DNA of 33,625 bases from a virus. Lineage: Duplodnaviria; Caudoviricetes. The DNA is taken from the IMG/VR virus record IMGVR_UViG_3300020388_000036, positions 1 to 33,625 of that record, one strand, 5' to 3'. Under the pieces are notes generated by a model. It was not told where the DNA came from. It worked only from the letters and a program-made list of their open reading frames with translations, and searched no databases. Position 1 is the first letter of the stretch. The number at the start of each line of letters is the position of its first letter. This document shows, piece after piece, positions 1,222-33,625 of the stretch. A program made the translations under genes and the position numbers.

Positions 1222-1542
1222 TTACTTAGCAATCTTTTCTAATTCATCTACAGCGTGTGCAATTTCTTTCATACGCTCATCATATTCTGGTGCATACAAT
1301 TTGTTTTCTATTTCTAGTAGCGATAGATTTGTAAGATGTTCCATAACACCATAGTAATGTTGTGCTAAACCAAACTTACTGTGAGATATTAAATCATCAG
1401 CATATTTTGTCTGTATGACATCTTGATACTCGTTTGACATTGTTCTGAATGTATTGACACGATTGATCTCGTGCATAGTTTTTTGATGAACTTCCGTTTC
1501 ATAATGATGTTTCTCTTCATCAGCTTTAAGATATTTAGACAT
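1222..1542 (-). CDS. Hypothetical helical protein (106 aa)
   Basis: RBS AAAGGAG upstream of the ATG; plausible composition. Confidence 0.8.
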   Translation of the reverse strand: MSKYLKADEEKHHYETEVHQKTMHEINRVNTFRTMSNEYQDVIQTKYADDLISHSKFGLAQHYYGVMEHLTNLSLLEIENKLYAPEYDERMKEIAHAVDELEKIAK

Positions 1543-1601
1543 TCTATACTCCTTTGTTTAAAGTCTAATATAAGTGTAACTTGTTTGTTAGTCGTCAAGT
1601 A

Positions 1602-1918
1602 GGTACAAGCTACAAAACCTTAGTCCGTAATTTGTTTGTCCACTTTTCCGGTGGTAGCTTATATGTGGCATATGTTTACAGCTGACACACAAGCGTATAG
1701 TTGTAAATTGGTACAAACTACAAAACCGTTAGCCAAGCATAGGACTCAAACCTATTTAGTCTTGACCTGATTGCCGTGGAATCTTATTACCTAGAACCAC
1801 GCTATGCAATCATAGTGCAGGACTAATATGGGGAAGGATTTGTGAGTCCTGCATTACGAGTGCATATGTTGGGAGTGTGGTGATGATAGTGAAAAGGTTG
1901 CCACTTGTCCCACACTCC
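1602..1918. other. Non-coding region with tandem stem-loops and an 18-nt direct repeat (candidate structured RNA or ssDNA element)
   Basis: Stems at 1607-1613/1654-1660, 1675-1683/1699-1707, 1769-1779/1797-1811, 1813-1824/1845-1856 and 1872-1880/1910-1918. GGTACAARCTACAAAACC occurs at 1602-1619 and 1710-1727. Confidence 0.6.
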
Positions 1919-1923
1919 GTTAC

Positions 1924-2091
1924 TTATCTAGTATTATCAGCTAACCACCAGATTAACTGCTGTATCATTTTCATTCCGTAGTATAAACCAAACCCTGAAG
2001 CAAACAATGATATACCATTGAATACAGGATTTAGATATACAATAGCTACTAGAATGAAAATGACTACGAGTTTATCAACAATTAAAGACAT
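1924..2091 (-). CDS. Small membrane protein, 55 aa (not in ORF track)
   Basis: Hand translation MSLIVDKLVVIFILVAIVYLNPVFNGISLFASGFGLYYGMKMIQQLIWWLADNTR*; GGAGA RBS upstream; one or two hydrophobic segments. Confidence 0.75.
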   Translation of the reverse strand: MSLIVDKLVVIFILVAIVYLNPVFNGISLFASGFGLYYGMKMIQQLIWWLADNTR

Positions 2092-2105
2092 ATTATTATC
2101 TCCAT

Positions 2106-2135
2106 AAAAAAAGGGTAGCCATTTCTGACTACCCT
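2106..2135 (-). terminator. Intrinsic terminator downstream of the 164-aa gene
   Basis: Minus strand AGGGTAGTC-AGAAAT-GGCTACCCT followed by a T run, just after stop codon 2143. Confidence 0.8.
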
Positions 2136-2142
2136 ATAATTA

Positions 2143-2637
2143 TTATTTTTTTAGTGAATCAAGATACTTCTCAGCAGATTCTAACCTTTTGTTCTGCGAT
2201 TCAGTATTCTCTTGACTTGAGGACTTCGGTTCATATGGAAGAGACTCACCTGTGATATCTTTAAAGATGCCTTCCATCTCTTTCTGAAGTGCCTTGTATC
2301 GTTCAATCCAAACCTCGCTGTTTTCAACTTGGTCTAGCAGATAGCTGAATGGCTCAGATTTGGATTTCCTATCGTGGATTTGCTCAATCTTTCTTGCGAT
2401 TGAACCTTGATGGGAATAGATAACACTTGTCGGAAATTTACATAGTGCTCGTAGAATCCTCATCTGCTCAATGTGTGAGGAAGTAACCTTGACATTGCCT
2501 GGATTAACTGGCTTGGTCAAATCATCATCATCATTGGTGAATGGCTCTAAAACAGATGCAATCCCCTCAACACACGAACTAAGTGATTTAAAGTTAATAT
2601 CTTTTGAATGTATTTTTTGTGTATTTGATTTAGACAT
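2143..2637 (-). CDS. Orphan 164-aa protein encoded in the left arm of the inverted repeat
   Basis: Intact ORF with AAAAGGAG RBS and its own terminator; charged, helical-looking C-terminal half; no family recognised. Confidence 0.85.
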   Translation of the reverse strand: MSKSNTQKIHSKDINFKSLSSCVEGIASVLEPFTNDDDDLTKPVNPGNVKVTSSHIEQMRILRALCKFPTSVIYSHQGSIARKIEQIHDRKSKSEPFSYLLDQVENSEVWIERYKALQKEMEGIFKDITGESLPYEPKSSSQENTESQNKRLESAEKYLDSLKK

Positions 2638-2827
2638 ATTTACTCCTTTTTGTTAGTTAATATCAAAATCGCCACCCTTATAGGATATGTCTACACCTAC
2701 AACAACAATACACCATCCCAAGGAAGTATGACGACGATGGCCTGTCTAAAAAAATATATGCAACAAACCAAGGAGTAGGGGAATTTCCCCAGAAATTCAT
2801 ATTTTTATGCATCCCCAGATGCCTTAA

Positions 2828-3459
2828 AAATTGTCCTACGACTATGGGATTGTTAGTATATATTTATTTAGATGTATTCGTTGTTGTAGGTGTAGCACAT
2901 ATCCTATGGTGGCATAATGATTTTGATATTAACTAACTAAAAGGAACAGTAAATTGTCTAAATCAGATGCCAAAAAAACATTCATAAAGATATTAACTTT
3001 AATGAACGCCCCCCAACACACATACTCCATATATGGGGATTGCATCTGATTTAGAGTCATTCAACTGATGTTCTTTGATGATTTGCCGTTAATCCAAGCA
3101 ATGGAATGTTACAGCCGAACTGAGCAGATGAGGATTCAAGAGTACAAATTTCCGTCAGTTTATCAATTCCCGAATGTTCAATCGCAATAAAGTTGTTATA
3201 CAAATCCACGAATCCAAATCTGAGCAGTTTAGCTATCTGCGACCTTTTATGTTGTAAACAGGGAGTTTGCGATACAAGGCCGTAAGAAAGAATGGAAGGA
3301 AGATTTATCGCAGGGGAGGTCGCACCATATGAACCAAGTCCGACAAGAGAATCTGAATCACCAGAACAAAAGTATCTGCGAAGTTCTTGATTCACTACAA
3401 AAATTAATTATACATAGGTAGTCGGACTTGGCGTTTTTTAATGGGAGTAATCATATGTC
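2828..3459. repeat. Right arm of the inverted repeat: non-coding degenerate mirror of 2087-2786
   Basis: The + strand here follows the sense sequence of the 164-aa gene and its flanks in short blocks separated by indels. The RBS is interrupted (AAGGAACAGT), the ATG is lost and the frame is broken. Confidence 0.93.
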
Positions 3460-3510
3460 ATAACACAACGCCTTTCGGAGTATGTTGACTTTTTCAACGA
3501 TACTTGATAT

Positions 3511-3900
3511 ATGAAGAGTATGTCCGTTGCTAAACAAAAAGCAAACACGATTACTCCGAAAGCCCGAAAACTTGTTGATACGCTCGTAGCCTCTGGTTGT
3601 ACTATAACCGAAGCATCCAAAGTAGCAGGTTACAAGGGAAACAGTTCAAGAGTAAGTGCCTCCCGTATGCTACGAAAACCAGAGGTACAGCAGTATATGT
3701 TTGAGCAGATTCAGAAGAACCTTGGTATGTCCGCCGTCAAAGCACAACATAGACTACTTGACCTATGCAGTTCAGCTAAGTCGGAGTATGTACAGTTGGA
3801 AGCATCTAAGGACATATTAGACAGGGCAGGATTCAAAGCACCAGATAAACATCAGCACTTGGTCAAAGGAGATTTCAGTATTAACATAGACTTGAAGTAA
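3511..3900 (+). CDS. terS: Terminase small subunit
   Basis: HTH-like TITEASKVAGY...ASRMLRKPEVQQY followed by SEYVQLEASKDILDRAG, typical of TerS; first gene of the + strand block. The start may be ATG 3520. Confidence 0.8.
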   Translation: MKSMSVAKQKANTITPKARKLVDTLVASGCTITEASKVAGYKGNSSRVSASRMLRKPEVQQYMFEQIQKNLGMSAVKAQHRLLDLCSSAKSEYVQLEASKDILDRAGFKAPDKHQHLVKGDFSINIDLK

Positions 3901-4062
3901 CCCTGCCCTTGTCGTCAAAAGGTTTTCTGTATCTGTGCACATATGATTACTCAGCCAGATGGTGTTTTCTTGTCCTCCCTATTTCACCATAGGGGGGTTC
4001 AGAAAACAGATAGCTTGGCTGTATATATGTCCTACTCACTCATTAGAGTCTTTCAAGGTTCG

Positions 4063-4090
4063 TTGCATTTTTTTTTATTTCTGTTAAGGT
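4063..4090 (+). promoter_or_regulatory. Candidate sigma70-type promoter
   Basis: TTGCAT (4063-4068), 16 nt spacer, TAAGGT (4085-4090) preceded by TG-n; an ATG follows at 4097. Confidence 0.4.
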
Positions 4091-4096
4091 TCGGTT

Positions 4097-4144
4097 ATGA
4101 CTACATACATAATAATTAACATTTTGATCTGGGTGATATTCTAA
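4097..4144 (+). CDS. Putative 15-aa hydrophobic peptide (MTTYIIINILIWVIF)
   Basis: Its stop overlaps the next start (TAATG at 4142-4146); it has no RBS, so it may be leaderless. Confidence 0.4.
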   Translation: MTTYIIINILIWVIF

Positions 4145-4464
4145 TGCCTTCACCCGCTTGGACACGGAAAGCAGGTAAGAATCCTAAAGGAGGATTAAAT
4201 GCAAAAGGTCGTGCATCTTACAAGGCACAAACGGGTGGCACATTAAAAGCACCTGTTAAGTCAGGAGATAATCCAAGACGAGCATCTTTCTTAGCTAGAA
4301 TGGGAAATATGCCCGGCCCCGAAAAAGATAGCAAAGGTAGACCAACTCGTTTACTTTTGTCATTAAGAGCGTGGGGTGCATCAAGTAAAGAAGATGCACG
4401 GCGTAAAGCTAAAGCAATGTCAATACGATTGAAAAACAAAAAGAAAAGGAGCAAAAATGCCTAA
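4144..4464 (+). CDS. Basic phage protein (DUF6321-like)
   Basis: AWTRKAGKNPKGGLNAKGRASY...RRASFLARM...SLRAWG is a family I recognise from marine phages; the DUF number is from memory. Confidence 0.75.
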   Translation: MPSPAWTRKAGKNPKGGLNAKGRASYKAQTGGTLKAPVKSGDNPRRASFLARMGNMPGPEKDSKGRPTRLLLSLRAWGASSKEDARRKAKAMSIRLKNKKKRSKNA

Positions 4465-4516
4465 TAAAAAAATGCCTATAAAGAAAAAAAAGAAACCTAT
4501 GAAAAAGGGTTACTAA
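4457..4516 (+). CDS. 19-aa Lys-rich peptide (MPNKKMPIKKKKKPMKKGY)
   Basis: AGGAG RBS at 4447-4451; TAATG overlap with the next gene; exactly fills the gap between genes. Confidence 0.65.
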   Translation: MPNKKMPIKKKKKPMKKGY

Positions 4517-16740: not shown

Positions 16741-19100
16741 TGGTTAAACGATCCAAGGATATGGTTTCTTATAGAGAACAAATAGGAGTAACTGCTCCTA
16801 TTGGATATCAAACAGCAATACAAAAAACACAAGAATCTGCAGTAGCTTGGGATAAAACCTTTGAAAAAATATCAGATACTTTTACAGCATTACAGAAAAA
16901 AACAGATCAAATAAGAATGAAAAACGCTGTGCAAAATGCAAAATTTGAAATGGATGAAAAACAAATAACTGATGAAAAGACAGGTGAAGTAAGAACAGTT
17001 AAAACAATGAAGCCATTTAAAGCAGATAGATTTTTTTGGCAAACAGATCAAGATGATTATGATAAAATGATTGTTGCTAAAATGAAAATGGATCTTGGTT
17101 TACAGTTTGAAAAAGAAAGTATGGCACAATTAGAACAATCGTTTAATGCCAATGAAGATGCTAATGGATATGTAAATAGAATGGCTCCAATATTTGAGTC
17201 ATATAAACAAAATTTACCTTCAAAATTCTATGATGTAATACGACCTACTCTTGAAGCACAAATGCTACAAGATCAAAAGAAAGCACAAACTAAATTTAGA
17301 CAACAAAGAGAAGAAGAAACAAGTGCTTTTGCAGAACAGTATTTTAGTAAAGCAGAACAACAATTTAAGAGAGATGTGCTAATTGATCCTAGTAGTGCTA
17401 AAGACATAGCTAATGCATCAATAGCTGAAATACCTGAAAATCTTGTTGGTAGAAGTATTACGGAAAGAGTTAAGTTTCAATCAATGATTAATGGGTTACA
17501 TAAATTCTATTCGTCAGAAGTTAGTGGTGTAAACTTACAACAGCTACTTGATCCAACTACACCAAGAAGTCAAACTAGTTTTGGCAGAAAAGAACAAGAA
17601 AGCAATTTAGTAGCTATTCGTGATTTGATTGATGGTAAAGGAGCACAGCAAATAGCATTTGGTGGTAAAGTATCAACTCTTAAACAAGAGGATTTTAATA
17701 AAGTATTAGATGGTCTTACTGAAGATGAAGTAGATGCTATTGATTCTAATCTTACCGAGCGATTAGCCAATACATCTGGCTCTAGCGAACTAAGTGAAGC
17801 TATAGCAGGTTTTTCTAATTATACTCAACAAAGACAAGCATCTACAAACTATACTGATCCATTTGTACAAAAAAAAATGACACAGGTAGCTAAAGATAGT
17901 CCTGCAGAATATTTTCAAATACTTGCACAAAGCTCAAGCAATCCATCTCGTTTAGCTAATTTAACTACATATGACCAAGCTATGAGAACACCAGAGTTTT
18001 ATGAAGCACACGGCAGACTTGGAGCAATGCCTACTGTAATAAAAGATTCTATAGAACAACTTATATTATCAGGTGATGCTGATGTAATACAAGCAATGCT
18101 TAATCCTATGGTTGCATCAGCAACACGATTATCAGGAACTATGTATAAAGGTAAGTTTATAAGAACAGATAGTTATGAAAAAATGTTTCCTAGTTTATCT
18201 GATAAAGCACATAATATTTTAGAAGGTGTAAGAGTACGATCATTAGTTAATGATAGAATAGACTTTACTACAGTAGCTACTGAATTATCTACAGCATTTG
18301 ATAAAAACATTGATGAAAGAAGTGGTAATGCTTCTGTTGTTAATAAAGCAGTTGATGATGCAATTAAGCATGTAATTGATAAAACAGGTATTATGTTTGG
18401 TGAAGATAATTTAGCAACACCATTAAGAAATACTTTAAGAATGTATTTACGAAGTTCTACCATATATGATCCAAATGTTACAACTGAACCAACTAAAGGT
18501 TTTAAACAAATGGGTATGAAGTTTTATAATACTCTTACTGAAAAAGGTATAATAGGCAAAAGTAATTTTAATTATATGGCAGGAGGTGATGCAGGAGAAA
18601 GTGGCGTTGTATTATATCCATTAGAGCGACATAAGGTAACCGATCCTAATAATCCGAATAGAATGATAAATGATCATCACGAAGCGTATATTATGAATCA
18701 AATTAGTAAATTTGAAAGATATAAAAATGTTGATAGAAATAAAATGAAACTTGGTAGAGATTTTAGAGTATATCCTGTTAATACTAAAAATATGAATTTA
18801 ACAGATGATACTGCAAATATTTCTTATTATTTATTAGAAATAAATAAAGGCACAGGTGATGCTACACCTGTATTAGAAGATGATGGCACATTTTATTTTT
18901 ACACACCAAATGATGTAAAAGAAAAACTAGATAAAGCTAGAGATCAGGATATAGAAATTGGTATGGTACTTAGTAAAGATATTACACATTATGACGCACT
19001 TAATGAAGCTAATAAACAAAGGATAAGAGAAGCAGAAAACTTTGCAGACAATTATCCAACAACATTTAATGCACTAATTCCTAATTATGGCAAGAATTAA
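16740..19100 (+). CDS. Internal virion/ejection protein (gp15-like position)
   Basis: 786 aa, helical; assigned by synteny only. Confidence 0.65.
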   Translation: MVKRSKDMVSYREQIGVTAPIGYQTAIQKTQESAVAWDKTFEKISDTFTALQKKTDQIRMKNAVQNAKFEMDEKQITDEKTGEVRTVKTMKPFKADRFFWQTDQDDYDKMIVAKMKMDLGLQFEKESMAQLEQSFNANEDANGYVNRMAPIFESYKQNLPSKFYDVIRPTLEAQMLQDQKKAQTKFRQQREEETSAFAEQYFSKAEQQFKRDVLIDPSSAKDIANASIAEIPENLVGRSITERVKFQSMINGLHKFYSSEVSGVNLQQLLDPTTPRSQTSFGRKEQESNLVAIRDLIDGKGAQQIAFGGKVSTLKQEDFNKVLDGLTEDEVDAIDSNLTERLANTSGSSELSEAIAGFSNYTQQRQASTNYTDPFVQKKMTQVAKDSPAEYFQILAQSSSNPSRLANLTTYDQAMRTPEFYEAHGRLGAMPTVIKDSIEQLILSGDADVIQAMLNPMVASATRLSGTMYKGKFIRTDSYEKMFPSLSDKAHNILEGVRVRSLVNDRIDFTTVATELSTAFDKNIDERSGNASVVNKAVDDAIKHVIDKTGIMFGEDNLATPLRNTLRMYLRSSTIYDPNVTTEPTKGFKQMGMKFYNTLTEKGIIGKSNFNYMAGGDAGESGVVLYPLERHKVTDPNNPNRMINDHHEAYIMNQISKFERYKNVDRNKMKLGRDFRVYPVNTKNMNLTDDTANISYYLLEINKGTGDATPVLEDDGTFYFYTPNDVKEKLDKARDQDIEIGMVLSKDITHYDALNEANKQRIREAENFADNYPTTFNALIPNYGKN

Positions 19101-22100
19101 TACTACATCAGTAGATAGTCTAAGTAATAATCAACAAGATTTTTTACGAGCATATAACTATGCACAGCTTAGACGAGTGCCTGTTATGGCTAAAGAAAAT
19201 AAGTATGTTCCTAACAATTCTTTCTTTGATGATGTTATGGATCATTATAGTTTGTCTTGGCTTAATCAATGGGCAGAAAGTACATCACCTATAGACCAAC
19301 AAGTAAGTGATGAATACGATCCTAATTATGATGTATTTGCTGACAACTTTGAGCCTTACCTACCTTATATGAAAGAATTTATTGGTATTAAAAATAAAGA
19401 ACAAGCTGATTTTTTAAAACAAAAAATAGATAGAAACAATGCTAGACGAGATAGATTAGAGCAAGCAGGCAGAATACTACCGGGATTTGCGGCGGCGTTT
19501 CTTGATCCAACTACATACATACCTATACCTATGGTAGGAGGATTAGGATTTGTTAAAGGTGCAGTACGAGGTGGTGTAGGTGTTGGTGGTATAACAGCAT
19601 TAACAGAACCTATACGACACAATTTAGATCCAACTTCTACATTTGAAGAAACAACAGCAATGATTGGATTGAGTGCACTTGCAGGTGGTTTTATCGGAGG
19701 AGTAGCAGGCTCACTTACAGCTAACTTAGGTAGCAAAACTTTAAAGAGTGCATTGCCTAAAGGTACAAAAAAAACATTAGATGACTACGACAAAGAGTTA
19801 TCTGAAAACGAAGGTATCAAAGATTATAATCAAGAAGAATTTTATATAAATCCAAAAAAAAATTTTGAAGATGTAACTATAAAATCAAAGCGAGGTAAAG
19901 AAGCTAGAGAGCCAGAACCTATTAAAGATGCAATAGATGCAATAGAATATCTTGATCCTAAAGGTTATAAGAGTCTTAGAATTATTGATGGTTATACAGG
20001 TAGGCACGATAAAAATGGTAAATATAAGAAAGCATTTTATCAAAGAAAAAATAATACAATACGAATAGATAGAGAAGCTATAAAACGAACATTCATAGAT
20101 TTGCCGTGGACTAAACCTACAGTAAAAGGTGTTGAAGCATTACCAAGAGATACATTTAATAATGCAGACGAATGGGCAGATTTTGTTATGTTGCACGAAT
20201 ATTCACATAGTAAAATAAAACAAAAACCCGGACAGAGCATAGCAGATTATGAAAATGCAATTAATCGTAATGCTATGGAAATACTTGGTAAAATTAAAAA
20301 ATTTAATAAAGGTGATGCTATTCGCATAAAATCAGTAAGTGGTATGAAAAGATTTAAAGCACTACCGGGAGAGTCTGTACCACAGCTAAGAGGAAGAATG
20401 CAACAACAACGAGAAATAGTAGATCAAACATTTACACAAACAGGTGTACAACAAGCTATAGAAGAAACAGAAACAGCAGGTGTTCGTAGTAATGTAGATG
20501 ATGTTGTGGCTAGATATAATAATCTTACTAATGAAGTAGAATTAGATATAGTAAAAGCAAAAGCACAGTTTGAACAAAAAAAACATTTAGAACAACTAAG
20601 ACAGGTTGGAGTAACACCACCTGCAAATTTATTTAGAACAGCAGATGATTGGGTAAATTACACAGTAAGACGAGCAATATTTGCAAGTGAAATTATGCCT
20701 AAGACACTTAAAGAATTTAAAGATATGCCTGTAAGTGAATATCTAAGCACTCTTAACAAAAGAGTAATTGATGACATTGTAAAAGACAATGTGTCTAAAG
20801 GTGCAGAAACTAGTGGTATTAAATATTTAAGAATATTAGAAGAAGTACAAAACCTTGGAGGCGTAGTTAATGCTGTAGGTAGAAATGTTAAAAACAAAAA
20901 ATTAAGAGAAAGGGTAGCACGAGATATGCTTGAACTATTAGGCGATCACGGAGTTATGACTAAAATGAATAGGGAAGGTTATTCTGCTACACCTGATTCT
21001 GTATTATTGCGAACATTTACTCAATACCAACCAAAACTTAGAGATGCTATATTTGAAATGGAAGATGCTTATTTTGGATATCACGGAATTGCTTCTGATA
21101 AAACAGGTGGACAAAGAACTATTGCTAGAGGTGTATTAGCTACACAACAATTTGGCTCAAAGGTTAAAAATGCTTTTAATAAAACAAAACAAGGTGAAGT
21201 ACCACCAGATGTAACGCTTAGAGATTATTATAGTATGGTTGGTAGATACATAATGGATGAAGATGTATTACAAGAAACACAAGATATTGCATTGCAGGAA
21301 GCTATAAAAAAAGGATCAATACCATTTAATAGATTAATGAAAGAATTTAATGATGTAGCAAGTAGTTTGCAAATGTTTAAATCTCAAAAGAGTTTTCAAA
21401 TAATGACAAAAAGGGCAGAACTTACTTTAGCTAAAGCATTAGATATGCAAAGAACAGGTAAGTTTACGGGTGAACAAGCAGAAGCACTTGCTAAAAAAAT
21501 ACAAAGCAAAAGAGAATTTTTAAAATTACAACAAGCTGAAATAGATGTTGTAGCTAACGACTCCTTAACAGCAGGAAAAGAAAAATATTTTACTAGATAT
21601 TTTAGACACGACAAATTAGTAGAAAATGCAGATGAGTTTAAAGCAATATTAAGACGACATTTTGAAACAACATTACCACAAAAAATAACTGATCCTAAAT
21701 ATCTAAAGCGTAGAAAACTAGCAGAAAAAAGAAATAAACTTACGGCTAAAGAAAAAATACCTGACGATCTAACAAATAGAGAAAAAATATTAGATGCAGA
21801 AGTAGAATATCATTACAACCAAATCTTAGAAGGACATTCAAGATGGGGTGATATAGAAGGAATACACGGATATGGTATTGATGTTGATGGTCAATACAAA
21901 GTAGGAGCAAGACAATTACTACAAAGAGAACTTGATATTCCTAACAAAGAACTAAAAGATTTTATAGAACAAGATGCAGAAATTGTTATGCGACAATATG
22001 TACAAAGAATGGCACCTGCTTTAGAATTGCATAAAAAATTTGGTGATGTACATTTAACAGAATATTTAGATAATCTTGAATTAGATTTAATAGCAGATAA

Positions 22101-23523
22101 TGTACCACAAACAGCAAGACAAAAAATAATTAATGGCTTTAGAGATGGAAAAGATAATTTATTAGGTACGCTTTATTCTGATGATCCAACAACATTAAGC
22201 GTACAAATAGCTAATAGTATTCGTAATCTTGCAAGTTTAGCATTTATGGGAAAAGTTACAATAAGTGCCTTGCCTGAGATAGCTAGACCATTAATGGTAA
22301 ATGGTTTTCATAGAACATATAAAGATGTAATTGGTGCTTATGTAGGAGGTTTAGAAACTATTGGTAAACATTCTAATATTAATGAGTTAGACCAACTTGT
22401 ACCTATACTTGAAGGTGAACTCTCTAGTGCTTCTTCTCGTTTTGTCTTTGACTCTACAGCGCAACAATCAAAAAATTTTGGTGGATATTTTAATAAAGCT
22501 GTTGGTCAATGGCTTGAACGCCCACAACAAGCATTTTATCAAGCTAACATTCTTACTCCATATACAAGAGGAATTAAAAGAATTGTACGCCGTATGAGTA
22601 TGCATAGATTTGTAGAAGATAGTGCAAAACTTGTAGCAGGTAAACTAGATGAAACAGGCATTGCCCGTCTTGCATCATATGGTATTGATAAAAATGTAGC
22701 TGAAGTATTTAGTCGTATGCCAATAGAAAAAAGTAAAGGAACATACTATTTAAATTCTATGGCGTGGGATGCATTGCCCGGTGGTAAAATGGCAAGACGA
22801 AAATTACAAAGTGCAATATATGCAGATATGAATAGAACTATTGTAACGCCTAGTGCCGCTGATCAAGTGAATATGATGCACGGAGTAATCAGAATTAATG
22901 ATGAAGGAATTGCTGAACTGATGGACAATCCATTATTCAAAGCAATGGGATTCCAAAAAACAGATATGGGTGGTAAAATAAATAATGCTTGGCTTGGTTT
23001 ATTATTACAGTTTTATTCTTGGGGAATAAGTGCAAATCGTAAAGTGTTAATAGGTTTAGCACAAGGAAGAGATGGCAAAATGGGACAAGCTATGGCAGGT
23101 GTATCTAGTGCTATAGCATTAGGTATGATGGCAGATTGGGCAAAAAATCCTAGATATTATGAAAACAAAGATTTAGGAGAAAAGATTATAAGAGGTGTAG
23201 AATTGTCTGGTACAACAGCATTATTAGGTGATGCTAACTTTATGTTAGAAACTACAAGTGGTGGATTTTTTGGAGAATCAATAGGTGCAAGACCATTGTT
23301 AGGATTAGATCAACGCTTTGGAGATGCTGATGGAGATGATGCAGTTAAAGAAATAATAGGTAGTGGCCCAAGTATGCTATTTGATGTAATAAGTGCATTT
23401 TCTAACGACACCTTGTCAGATGTTGAAAAAAAGACTATGTTAAGAAAGTTGATACCTTTAAATAATTTTTGGTTATGGGATCAAGCATTTAGAGATTTAT
23501 ATAATGATGTGGTAATAGAATGA
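19087..23523 (+). CDS. Large internal virion/ejection protein (gp16-like position) with HExxH-containing insert
   Basis: 1478 aa; Gly-rich hydrophobic N-terminal segments (DPTTYIP...GGFIGGVAG); internal MLHEYSH motif. Confidence 0.75.
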   Translation: MARINTTSVDSLSNNQQDFLRAYNYAQLRRVPVMAKENKYVPNNSFFDDVMDHYSLSWLNQWAESTSPIDQQVSDEYDPNYDVFADNFEPYLPYMKEFIGIKNKEQADFLKQKIDRNNARRDRLEQAGRILPGFAAAFLDPTTYIPIPMVGGLGFVKGAVRGGVGVGGITALTEPIRHNLDPTSTFEETTAMIGLSALAGGFIGGVAGSLTANLGSKTLKSALPKGTKKTLDDYDKELSENEGIKDYNQEEFYINPKKNFEDVTIKSKRGKEAREPEPIKDAIDAIEYLDPKGYKSLRIIDGYTGRHDKNGKYKKAFYQRKNNTIRIDREAIKRTFIDLPWTKPTVKGVEALPRDTFNNADEWADFVMLHEYSHSKIKQKPGQSIADYENAINRNAMEILGKIKKFNKGDAIRIKSVSGMKRFKALPGESVPQLRGRMQQQREIVDQTFTQTGVQQAIEETETAGVRSNVDDVVARYNNLTNEVELDIVKAKAQFEQKKHLEQLRQVGVTPPANLFRTADDWVNYTVRRAIFASEIMPKTLKEFKDMPVSEYLSTLNKRVIDDIVKDNVSKGAETSGIKYLRILEEVQNLGGVVNAVGRNVKNKKLRERVARDMLELLGDHGVMTKMNREGYSATPDSVLLRTFTQYQPKLRDAIFEMEDAYFGYHGIASDKTGGQRTIARGVLATQQFGSKVKNAFNKTKQGEVPPDVTLRDYYSMVGRYIMDEDVLQETQDIALQEAIKKGSIPFNRLMKEFNDVASSLQMFKSQKSFQIMTKRAELTLAKALDMQRTGKFTGEQAEALAKKIQSKREFLKLQQAEIDVVANDSLTAGKEKYFTRYFRHDKLVENADEFKAILRRHFETTLPQKITDPKYLKRRKLAEKRNKLTAKEKIPDDLTNREKILDAEVEYHYNQILEGHSRWGDIEGIHGYGIDVDGQYKVGARQLLQRELDIPNKELKDFIEQDAEIVMRQYVQRMAPALELHKKFGDVHLTEYLDNLELDLIADNVPQTARQKIINGFRDGKDNLLGTLYSDDPTTLSVQIANSIRNLASLAFMGKVTISALPEIARPLMVNGFHRTYKDVIGAYVGGLETIGKHSNINELDQLVPILEGELSSASSRFVFDSTAQQSKNFGGYFNKAVGQWLERPQQAFYQANILTPYTRGIKRIVRRMSMHRFVEDSAKLVAGKLDETGIARLASYGIDKNVAEVFSRMPIEKSKGTYYLNSMAWDALPGGKMARRKLQSAIYADMNRTIVTPSAADQVNMMHGVIRINDEGIAELMDNPLFKAMGFQKTDMGGKINNAWLGLLLQFYSWGISANRKVLIGLAQGRDGKMGQAMAGVSSAIALGMMADWAKNPRYYENKDLGEKIIRGVELSGTTALLGDANFMLETTSGGFFGESIGARPLLGLDQRFGDADGDDAVKEIIGSGPSMLFDVISAFSNDTLSDVEKKTMLRKLIPLNNFWLWDQAFRDLYNDVVIE

Positions 23524-33350: not shown

Positions 33351-33625
33351 TTTCGTACTACTATTATACTATTAATATTCTACTATGCAACAAGTTCTTG
33401 CCATTGTTTTGAACCTAATGCTTTAGCTACTTCATCTTCTCTGCGCTTACGAATGGCGTGTCCACGCTCTCCGTCAGTATGAGTAGACCAATAAGTAAGA
33501 GCATTGTATAACGCCCACTTTGTACTACCAAGCGTACGACTTTCACGATCAAAACCTTCAAGTAATGTTTCTGTTCTCGTTACATTGAATGGTATTGAGT
33601 TAGATGAACGCTTGAATGTTTTAGC
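33351..33625 (+). repeat. Terminal direct repeat, copy 2 (contains the 3' end of a variant DUF932-like allele)
   Basis: Matches 1-275 with 12 substitutions. Confidence 0.97.

Follow-up and report, generated by a model that had tools for sequence, protein, structure and literature searches.

Single-stranded DNA (ssDNA) promoters are known from the leading regions of the plasmids F, ColIb-P9 and pESBL, where they are referred to as Frpo1/Frpo2 (ssp1), ssp2, ssp3 and ssi (passages in PMC9849209, PMC11541004, PMC12672017, PMC13478746 and bioRxiv 10.64898/2026.01.09.698686, in which Masai and Arai 1997 is cited as an earlier source). According to the portions of PMC9849209, PMC12672017 and PMC11541004 that deal with their activity, they are active on incoming ssDNA and off in double-stranded DNA (dsDNA). 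Likewise, a part of bioRxiv 10.64898/2026.01.09.698686 describes ssp2 of F as a replication roadblock and Frpo transcripts as able to prime synthesis. Such promoters have so far been known as short hairpins on conjugative plasmids, and the DNA that tailed phages present is assumed to be double-stranded. The promoters of phage N4 are hairpins of a few base pairs that need the virion's own polymerase, the single-strand origins of M13 and of rolling-circle elements make primers in ssDNA replicons, and 6S RNA, HDV and the obelisks are rod-like RNAs used by polymerases. The fold-back described here differs from the already known Frpo/ssp promoters in that it belongs to a tailed phage and in that its stem spans an open reading frame (ORF) together with its terminator. 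In the literature searched, subscription papers excepted, we found no description of hairpins of this kind in tailed phages or of gene-length mirrors; the supplementary tables of PMC11541004 and PMC12672017 may list long candidates.

The analysed stretch of 33,625 nt, referred to as the window in the following, comprises the whole 33.35-kb genome of a marine podophage plus an end overlap of 275 nt. The two copies of this overlap (1-275 and 33351-33625) are 96% identical. They differ by 12 substitutions and no indels, with 9 of the substitutions at positions divisible by three, and are probably two strain variants that the assembler joined, not a true terminal repeat. TerL, portal, capsid and a T7-like core mark the genome as that of a tailed phage. 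A SAR11 host is likely, because TerL (81% identity) and the terminase small subunit terS (70%) match those of Pelagibacter phage Hodr, the only Pelagibacter phage matched among the records searched. As regards the Ubiqueviridae (HTVC010P-type pelagiphages, PMC10504331), these two matches to Hodr are all that was observed. The near-identical phage contigs L176-L181 were sorted into MAGs of unrelated archaeal and bacterial taxa, which is probably mis-binning and no evidence on the host. The encoded proteins include a YqaJ exonuclease, SSB, RusA and DUF932, and among the 22 and 27 window proteins scanned there was no match to a DNA polymerase, an RNA polymerase or a relaxase. A virion (ejection) protein of 1478 residues (19087-23523) has a conserved HExxH motif at residues 370-374 and no family match, and no structure match points to a nuclease either.

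Late genes are encoded on the + strand from terS (3511) onwards and early genes on the - strand, and the fold-back lies at the point of divergence. terS itself (3511-3900, +; PF03592, PHROG 51) starts at 3511 or 3520 and is preceded by a candidate promoter, TTGACT-17-TATATG (3485-3513, +), which was recognized from the sequence, is absent from the list of the strict scan and lies outside the fold-back. It is followed by a hairpin (3935-4030, +), which sequence comparison shows to carry a family-conserved motif of a G-run and then an A-run (3991-4006 in the window), present at 201 of 230 loci compared with 27 of 214 controls; judging from phage patterns, we presume this motif to be a candidate packaging site, which is a guess. 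In addition, a perfect 14-nt inverted pair (3445-3458/3939-3952), kept in variant L006 only, flanks terS; since its first copy is also the outer end of one arm of the fold-back, an alternative pairing with 3939-3952 is possible. The early block also contains a DUF932 gene (33-893, -; family match), of which the F leading region has one too. In Hodr (L085:4574-5458), a protein with ArdC-N and MPTase domains occupies its place, and we take both ArdC, by its role, and DUF932 to be of plasmid leading-region type.

Self-blastn aligns 2087-2712 with 3459-2873 at 72.7% identity over 666 columns (42 gap openings, E 1e-81). The matched fraction along the stem is 0.63-0.88, and the longest perfect block is 19 bp, just as had been read from the sequence at first. 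The left arm (2087-2712, +; self-blastn and folding) provides the template strand for the transcription unit that comes first in the early block. This unit consists of a weak conventional promoter candidate without the -7T on the gene's own strand (TTGTTG-17-TATAAG, 2677-2705, -), a ribosome-binding site (RBS) recognized from the sequence (AGGAG, 2643-2647, -), a 164-aa ORF from the ORF list (2143-2637, -), which is the one nearest terS in the early block and by inference the first early gene, and an intrinsic terminator with a 10-bp stem and a T tract (2106-2135, -). The right arm (2873-3459, +) is a degenerate sense copy, or mirror, of promoter, RBS, ORF and terminator and is predicted to serve as the non-template strand; its copy of the terminator pairs with the original and forms no terminator stem. 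The arms are joined by a branched apex (2713-2872, +), composed of a small side hairpin, an inner stem (2745-2786/2828-2872) with a Y-shaped tip and two tip hairpins (2781-2798, 2809-2822). The original prediction of one stem between 2087-2786 and 2828-3459 thus had the right outer bounds, but not the branching. Both tip hairpins share a CCCA loop (2788-2791, 2814-2817) and have covarying stems; they are possible protein-binding sites.

Folding against shuffled sequences gave z-scores of -25 to -38 for 2080-3470 (only 8 dinucleotide shuffles each) and -20.5 for 2560-3030 (100 shuffles). This is the sole long fold-back in the genome; a smaller one (1951-1983/2047-2076, score 35) lies within a 55-aa ORF to its left. 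An indel-rich second arm is also what long-read fold-back errors look like, and the element could be a chimera of reading or amplification. However, 20 of 24 listed seawater runs (18 studies) contain 90-97% of the words of 1500-4500. Furthermore, 1500-4200 is covered by a single contig with 3 differences in three of four runs and 1737-4070 by one piece in the fourth, although the contigs of any of these four runs may be the window's own source. The same letters recur in contigs of four runs from different studies and in independent assemblies, and diverged variants as well as a cultured phage carry the element, so that an artefact is refuted. No RNA run contained the window stretch in the word search of sequencing runs.

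The mirror arm is non-coding, as had been supposed: it has no + strand ORF of at least 45 aa, and all 18 and all 20 indels that separate it from two orthologous mirror arms shift the frame, for which reason a coding mirror arm was rejected. Its frame and start codon are indeed lost (ATG has become TTG), whereas its RBS, which had been thought absent, persists in degraded form (AGGAAC). The two arms nevertheless evolve together. Variant L006 has the same terS protein as the window, and its arms are only 84-86% (about 85%) identical to those of the window. Within the 436 register-consistent columns of 624 (188 were dropped as bulged or inconsistent), the left side changed in 27, the right in 35 and both in 21, of which 18 are still Watson-Crick (Fisher p 2e-21). 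These compensatory changes affect synonymous and non-synonymous sites alike, and 70 unpaired bases (55 bulged and 15 mismatched) are shared. Covariation is significant in all six pairings of four variants and extends to promoter and apex, where 11 of 119 pairs are compensatory, including both tip hairpins and pairs upstream of any start site.

Judged by these substitutions, the fold-back is under selection and not decaying, as the original prediction had it, and the whole element folds in cis on one continuous strand, because promoter and apex covary as well as the stem. That a non-coding arm follows a fast-evolving gene base by base is an uncommon form of coevolution inside one molecule. The further suggestion that the bulges serve to avoid long perfect palindromes fares less well: blocks of at least 15 bp are somewhat rarer than expected (16 vs 25), which supports it weakly, but blocks of up to 28 bp occur.

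The element is not peculiar to this phage but family-wide. We scored the 1.5 kb upstream of terS with a threshold of 45. In a first set, made up of loci with at least 900 nt upstream, 46 of 66 terS-linked loci reached the threshold compared with none of 58 downstream controls, which scored 22-36. In a second set from two further terS scans and six genome contigs, which overlaps partly with the first and repeats some contigs, it was 96 of 138 loci compared with none of 120 controls. Relatives therefore carry an equivalent repeat at the place where it had been foreseen, including the cultured pelagiphage Hodr with a partial version that reaches 146 nt into the gene. The 20 of 66 and 42 of 138 loci below threshold count against the Frpo-like reading proposed below. 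No fold-back was found at 66 DUF6321 loci, which were fetched by the next gene and lack this terS, nor in MEP301 (TerL 43%).

Removal of redundancy left 63 elements, 58 of them with a located start codon. Among these 58, the stem covers the promoter region only in 12, part of the gene in 38 and the whole gene in 8, which makes the promoter region the constant part. All eight whole-gene elements end 8-64 nt past the stop codon, and seven cover the terminator hairpin. The mirror arms of different whole-gene lineages have no DNA similarity to each other, and blastp with the window's ORF matched none of the other seven whole-gene ORFs. In a quick terS tree, the eight are spread apart, and at least five changes are required by its strongly supported branches. 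Independent origins of the whole-gene versions are suggested by this pattern, and only suggested, because the tree is quick and cassettes may recombine.

Which strand folds can be read from the mismatches. On the + strand, the 591 isolated mismatches of the 63 elements include 209 G.T vs 29 A.C and 44 G.G vs 3 C.C, along with 78 T.T vs 43 A.A and 81 G.A vs 104 C.T; for complementary arms, G.T and A.C are expected to be about equal (21 vs 19 of 126). By lineage, 46 favour the + strand, 5 favour the - strand and 12 tie. A strand mutation bias was rejected as the cause, since the skews at four-fold sites (T/A 0.92 and 1.04, G/C 0.98 and 1.66, hence no T/A skew) are too small for a 7:1 ratio. The + strand also has the lower fold energy. 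It thus appears that the + strand, the gene's template, is the one that folds and is under selection, because G.T far exceeds A.C on it. This part of the original prediction, that the + strand is the one that folds, is supported; its DNA part fared less well, as detailed below.

The same evidence bears on a recurrent inverted duplication without function, in which template switching or gene conversion would keep the arms similar. In its favour, a change in one arm can be carried to the other by template switching, some of the compensatory sites adjoin each other, and the whole-gene versions are scattered over the terS tree. Gene conversion is strand-symmetric, though, and cannot yield the excess of G.T; 16 of the 18 compensatory sites have a shared bulge still in place 2-14 nt away; gap runs number 46 against 59 substitutions between arms, compared with 18 against 75 between orthologous mirror arms; and position and end point recur in unrelated sequences. 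We consider this explanation highly improbable. A hok-type sequestration of the RBS in the leader of the - strand mRNA was likewise rejected, as the wobble bias is on the + strand and 12 of 58 elements miss the ATG.

Less clear-cut is the nature of the polymer. The mismatch spectrum is fitted better by RNA energies (log-likelihood -311) than by DNA energies (-335; null -410), because G.A shows no preference over C.T. The parameter sets of 1999 and 2004 returned the same values, which makes this a single test per polymer. In a plasmid control of 134 mismatches, from 18 non-redundant of 21 hairpins found at 56 gene starts, the RNA and DNA models tie (-87.0 vs -88.2), G.A and C.T number 26 and 23, and the G.T bias is weaker than in the phages (34:14 vs 209:29, p 0.006). 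The folding molecule might consequently be a continuous + RNA through gene, apex and mirror, either a rod that hides its antisense part or a 6S- or HDV-like decoy or template for RNA polymerase. Such a molecule would resemble the HDV/obelisk-type rods in being long, about 70% paired and bulged, with one ORF-bearing arm. RNA energies are ahead by 23 log units, the G.T bias exceeds that of the plasmid hairpins and is greatest in the transcribed part (190:23, compared with 15:5 at 45 nt or more upstream of the ATG), the tetraloops at both tips are identical, and the + strand folds best as RNA (-650 vs -618).

Several observations speak against such an RNA. G.T makes up only about 2% of pairs, and 38 of 58 elements have their outer end within the ORF. 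At the outer ends of the 63 elements, + strand promoters are not enriched (p 0.43), despite a 9/12 candidate at 2072-2099 in the window. The covariance models of Rfam 15 gave one chance match in 1400-4200 (E 0.67, far below the gathering score). Moreover, the homologous elements of plasmids have leading-type genes as neighbours, a setting in which ssDNA is known to occur. The element also differs from the rod RNAs in that no ribozyme was seen, in its location inside a DNA phage and in having a DNA promoter region as its constant part. DNA is favoured by this context and not by the mismatch energies, and a + strand RNA rod seems unlikely to us. Cruciform extrusion from dsDNA was rejected by reasoning, as imperfect hairpins (-394 and -376 kcal/mol) cannot beat a perfect duplex.

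If the + strand folds as DNA, it might do so as a promoter. In the predicted fold, the mirror arm presents an extended -10 candidate, TG-G-CATAAT (2910-2918, +). Its ATAAT (2914-2918, -11 to -7) is left unpaired as a bulge, 34 nt before the ATG, and just upstream three bases of the template (2677-2679) bulge out. Such a fork is what sigma-70 binds in the open complex. The window's mirror arm has this bulged extended -10 but no clear -35. The same motif sits at a bulge or mismatch in L017 and L077, and mirror-side boxes occur in L011, L043, L046, L048, L055, L068 and L071; in variant L176, the gene-strand TATAAG is lost and a bulged TATGAT is kept in the mirror.

The comparison of boxes relied on a -10/-35 matrix of E. 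coli-type weights. With the strict matrix, the mirror beats the gene strand in 20 of 28 cases (p 0.023; box tests p 0.01-0.02), but with the -7T relaxed in only 15 of 28 (p 0.29), and in a larger set of 46 a good -10 is present in 11 mirror arms and 8 gene strands. Many alphaproteobacterial promoters lack the -7T (PMC7703639), and the gene may thus simply use TTGTTG-17-TATAAG on its own strand. The idea of an Frpo-like promoter, with which this analysis began, is supported in its overall design, whereas the effect of its boxes across the family is modest to null and depends on how the matrix is set.

A mirror -10 would also fire rightwards in dsDNA, which counts against an Frpo-like promoter and would allow the mirror arm to be transcribed from it and to act in trans, as an antisense or guide decoy or in an R-loop, or to form the leader of a late transcript. 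The mirror -10 is intact in dsDNA, Hodr-type elements have a terS promoter-like TTGACA-17-TATACT inside the mirror arm, and an RNA pairing with the template strand would give a G.T bias too. We still regard this as very unlikely, given that compensatory changes occur in the apex and ahead of both start sites, where neither transcript would reach, and that 12 of the 58 elements stop short of the ATG.

The closest parallels are the Frpo/ssp promoters themselves. When scored with the same method as the phage elements, Frpo1, Frpo2 and the klcA hairpin of F reach 49-67 and fold better on the template strand. Like them, the phage element is an imperfect, bulged fold-back on the template strand over an early-gene promoter, with more G.T than A.C on that strand (16 vs 7 in F) and a branched or looped apex; as in the klcA hairpin, a -10 candidate lies in a bubble on the mirror arm, and the neighbours are of the leading-region type (DUF932, ArdC, SSB, DUF2493 domain). 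In contrast, each arm of the F stems measures about 55-160 bp, and these stems end 36-46 nt short of the ATG, whereas the phage stem has about 625 nt and covers ORF and terminator. Furthermore, the carrier is a tailed phage without relaxase or oriT among the proteins scanned, and the likeness is one of fold anatomy. There is also only one such element per genome, which counts against an Frpo-like reading. We would therefore say that the phage element works like Frpo/ssp, and not that it is one, because the window is a tailed phage and not a conjugative leading region that enters as ssDNA. With the N4 promoters and single-strand origins, it would share being a phage DNA hairpin read by RNA polymerase on one strand; it differs from N4 in that the scanned window proteins had no RNA polymerase match.

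We propose, with a probability of roughly 60%, that the element is an Frpo/ssp-like ssDNA promoter whose extension forms a pseudo-duplex template covering the entire first early gene. Once single-stranded, the + strand would fold into a 1.37-kb rod, in which the mirror arm supplies the non-template strand and the extended -10 is held open in its bulge. Host sigma-70 RNA polymerase could then start on the folded + strand without a complementary strand, and, with the pairing continued across ORF and terminator, the transcript could be displaced and terminated, where it might otherwise be left as an RNA-DNA hybrid or primer. That pairing through ORF and terminator frees the RNA may be why the long versions end 8-64 nt after the stop codon. 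In double-stranded DNA, the hairpin could no longer form.

The weakest step is the exposure of the + strand, which might occur early in infection by 5'-to-3' resection of the genome end near terS, through a host nuclease or the phage YqaJ exonuclease. If the motif after terS is the packaging site, the fold-back would lie near the right genome end, the 3' strand there would be the + strand, and resection would expose it. No genome ends were located from contig ends; there is a mild excess of contig starts at terS, equally explained by assembly breaks, and no spike downstream.

Alternatively, the + strand may fold as DNA for another job, namely to block or prime the synthesis of the complementary strand or to shield or self-prime a resected 3' end, while the gene uses an ordinary promoter. 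The ssp2 roadblock and the priming by Frpo transcripts set precedents (in the part of bioRxiv 10.64898/2026.01.09.698686 cited above), the promoter-box results are weak, and the scanned proteins include a YqaJ exonuclease and SSB and no DNA polymerase. This leaves unexplained, however, why the promoter region is the constant part and why whole-gene elements end past stop and terminator, and pairing downstream of the start would hinder an annealed primer. We find such a role doubtful as the sole explanation, the most credible of the alternatives all the same, and it can coexist with an Frpo-like promoter.

The gene under the element points towards plasmids as well. The 164-aa ORF belongs to no Pfam or PHROG family and has no useful Atlas match. 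A profile of 27 first-gene proteins led to 107 representatives, four of which are longer and have PF10686 behind the shared helical domain; the group of the window's ORF matches the family profile in hhalign (97.1%, E 6e-11). By these profile comparisons, the ORF is distantly homologous to the N-terminal domain found in DUF2493/YAcAr proteins of alphaproteobacterial plasmids. Only this helical part is common, as the SLOG/YAcAr domain (PF10686) has no match in the ORF. The predicted model of a family member other than the window protein (L031, pLDDT 89.7) is a helical hairpin, which had no PDB match at E 0.001 and matched uncharacterised viral structures only. One PF10686-bearing protein matches 694 plasmids, mostly alphaproteobacterial and 439 of them typed as conjugative, with ssb, DUF736, toprim, DUF932 and relaxase as gene neighbours; this context suggests that the ORF family may have an anti-defence role.

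These plasmid genes are preceded by fold-backs, too, of which we found no published description in the literature searched. Seven of 11 DUF2493-type genes lie behind a fold-back scoring at least 40, one of which reaches the stop codon; among 12 plasmid genes that were rescanned, 3 were mirrored past the stop. They resemble the phage element in that the DUF2493-type gene has a domain homologous to the phage ORF and in that the stem extends from 40-100 nt upstream into the gene, but they are weaker (63-67% matched columns), their DUF2493 mirror can lie within an annotated toprim gene, and an ssDNA stage is known for plasmids. Fold-backs through most or all of the gene also occur at ssb, DUF736 and a 207-nt gene of alphaproteobacterial plasmids (L347:12162, L350:9328, L170:10215, L175:6505). 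The DUF2493 mirror lies largely inside the annotated upstream toprim gene at L172:4787-5732, at L347:6779-7670 and in L175 (NZ_CP043619.1, NZ_CP121117.1, NZ_OZ012601.1), so that two neighbouring coding genes are sense-antisense mirrors of each other. In three of six plasmids, such mirrors score above codon-shuffled controls (50, 91 and 47 vs maxima of 38, 34 and 40).

A selected, strand-specific fold-back at a fixed place in more than 100 marine phage contigs implies an undescribed single-stranded, or long antisense RNA, stage. In its widest and clearly tentative form, which we think rather less probable than not, our reading would be that a marine tailed-phage family passes through a strand-specific single-stranded stage at entry, as conjugative plasmids do, and has repeatedly built gene-length self-folding templates from which host RNA polymerase could make and release a complete first mRNA before the complementary strand is made, with a device that is shared with alphaproteobacterial plasmids, general and overlooked. 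The whole-gene versions raise the question whether a 70%-matched mirror can act as non-template strand for elongation, RNA release and termination, and the cultured member Hodr, on HTCC1062, makes the hypothesis testable. Next to the main element, a 380-nt structured intergenic region (1543-1925) precedes the second early operon. It can form alternative hairpins on either strand, is partly conserved in the terS relatives L009-L016 and L042, and is possibly a second promoter hairpin or an RNA.
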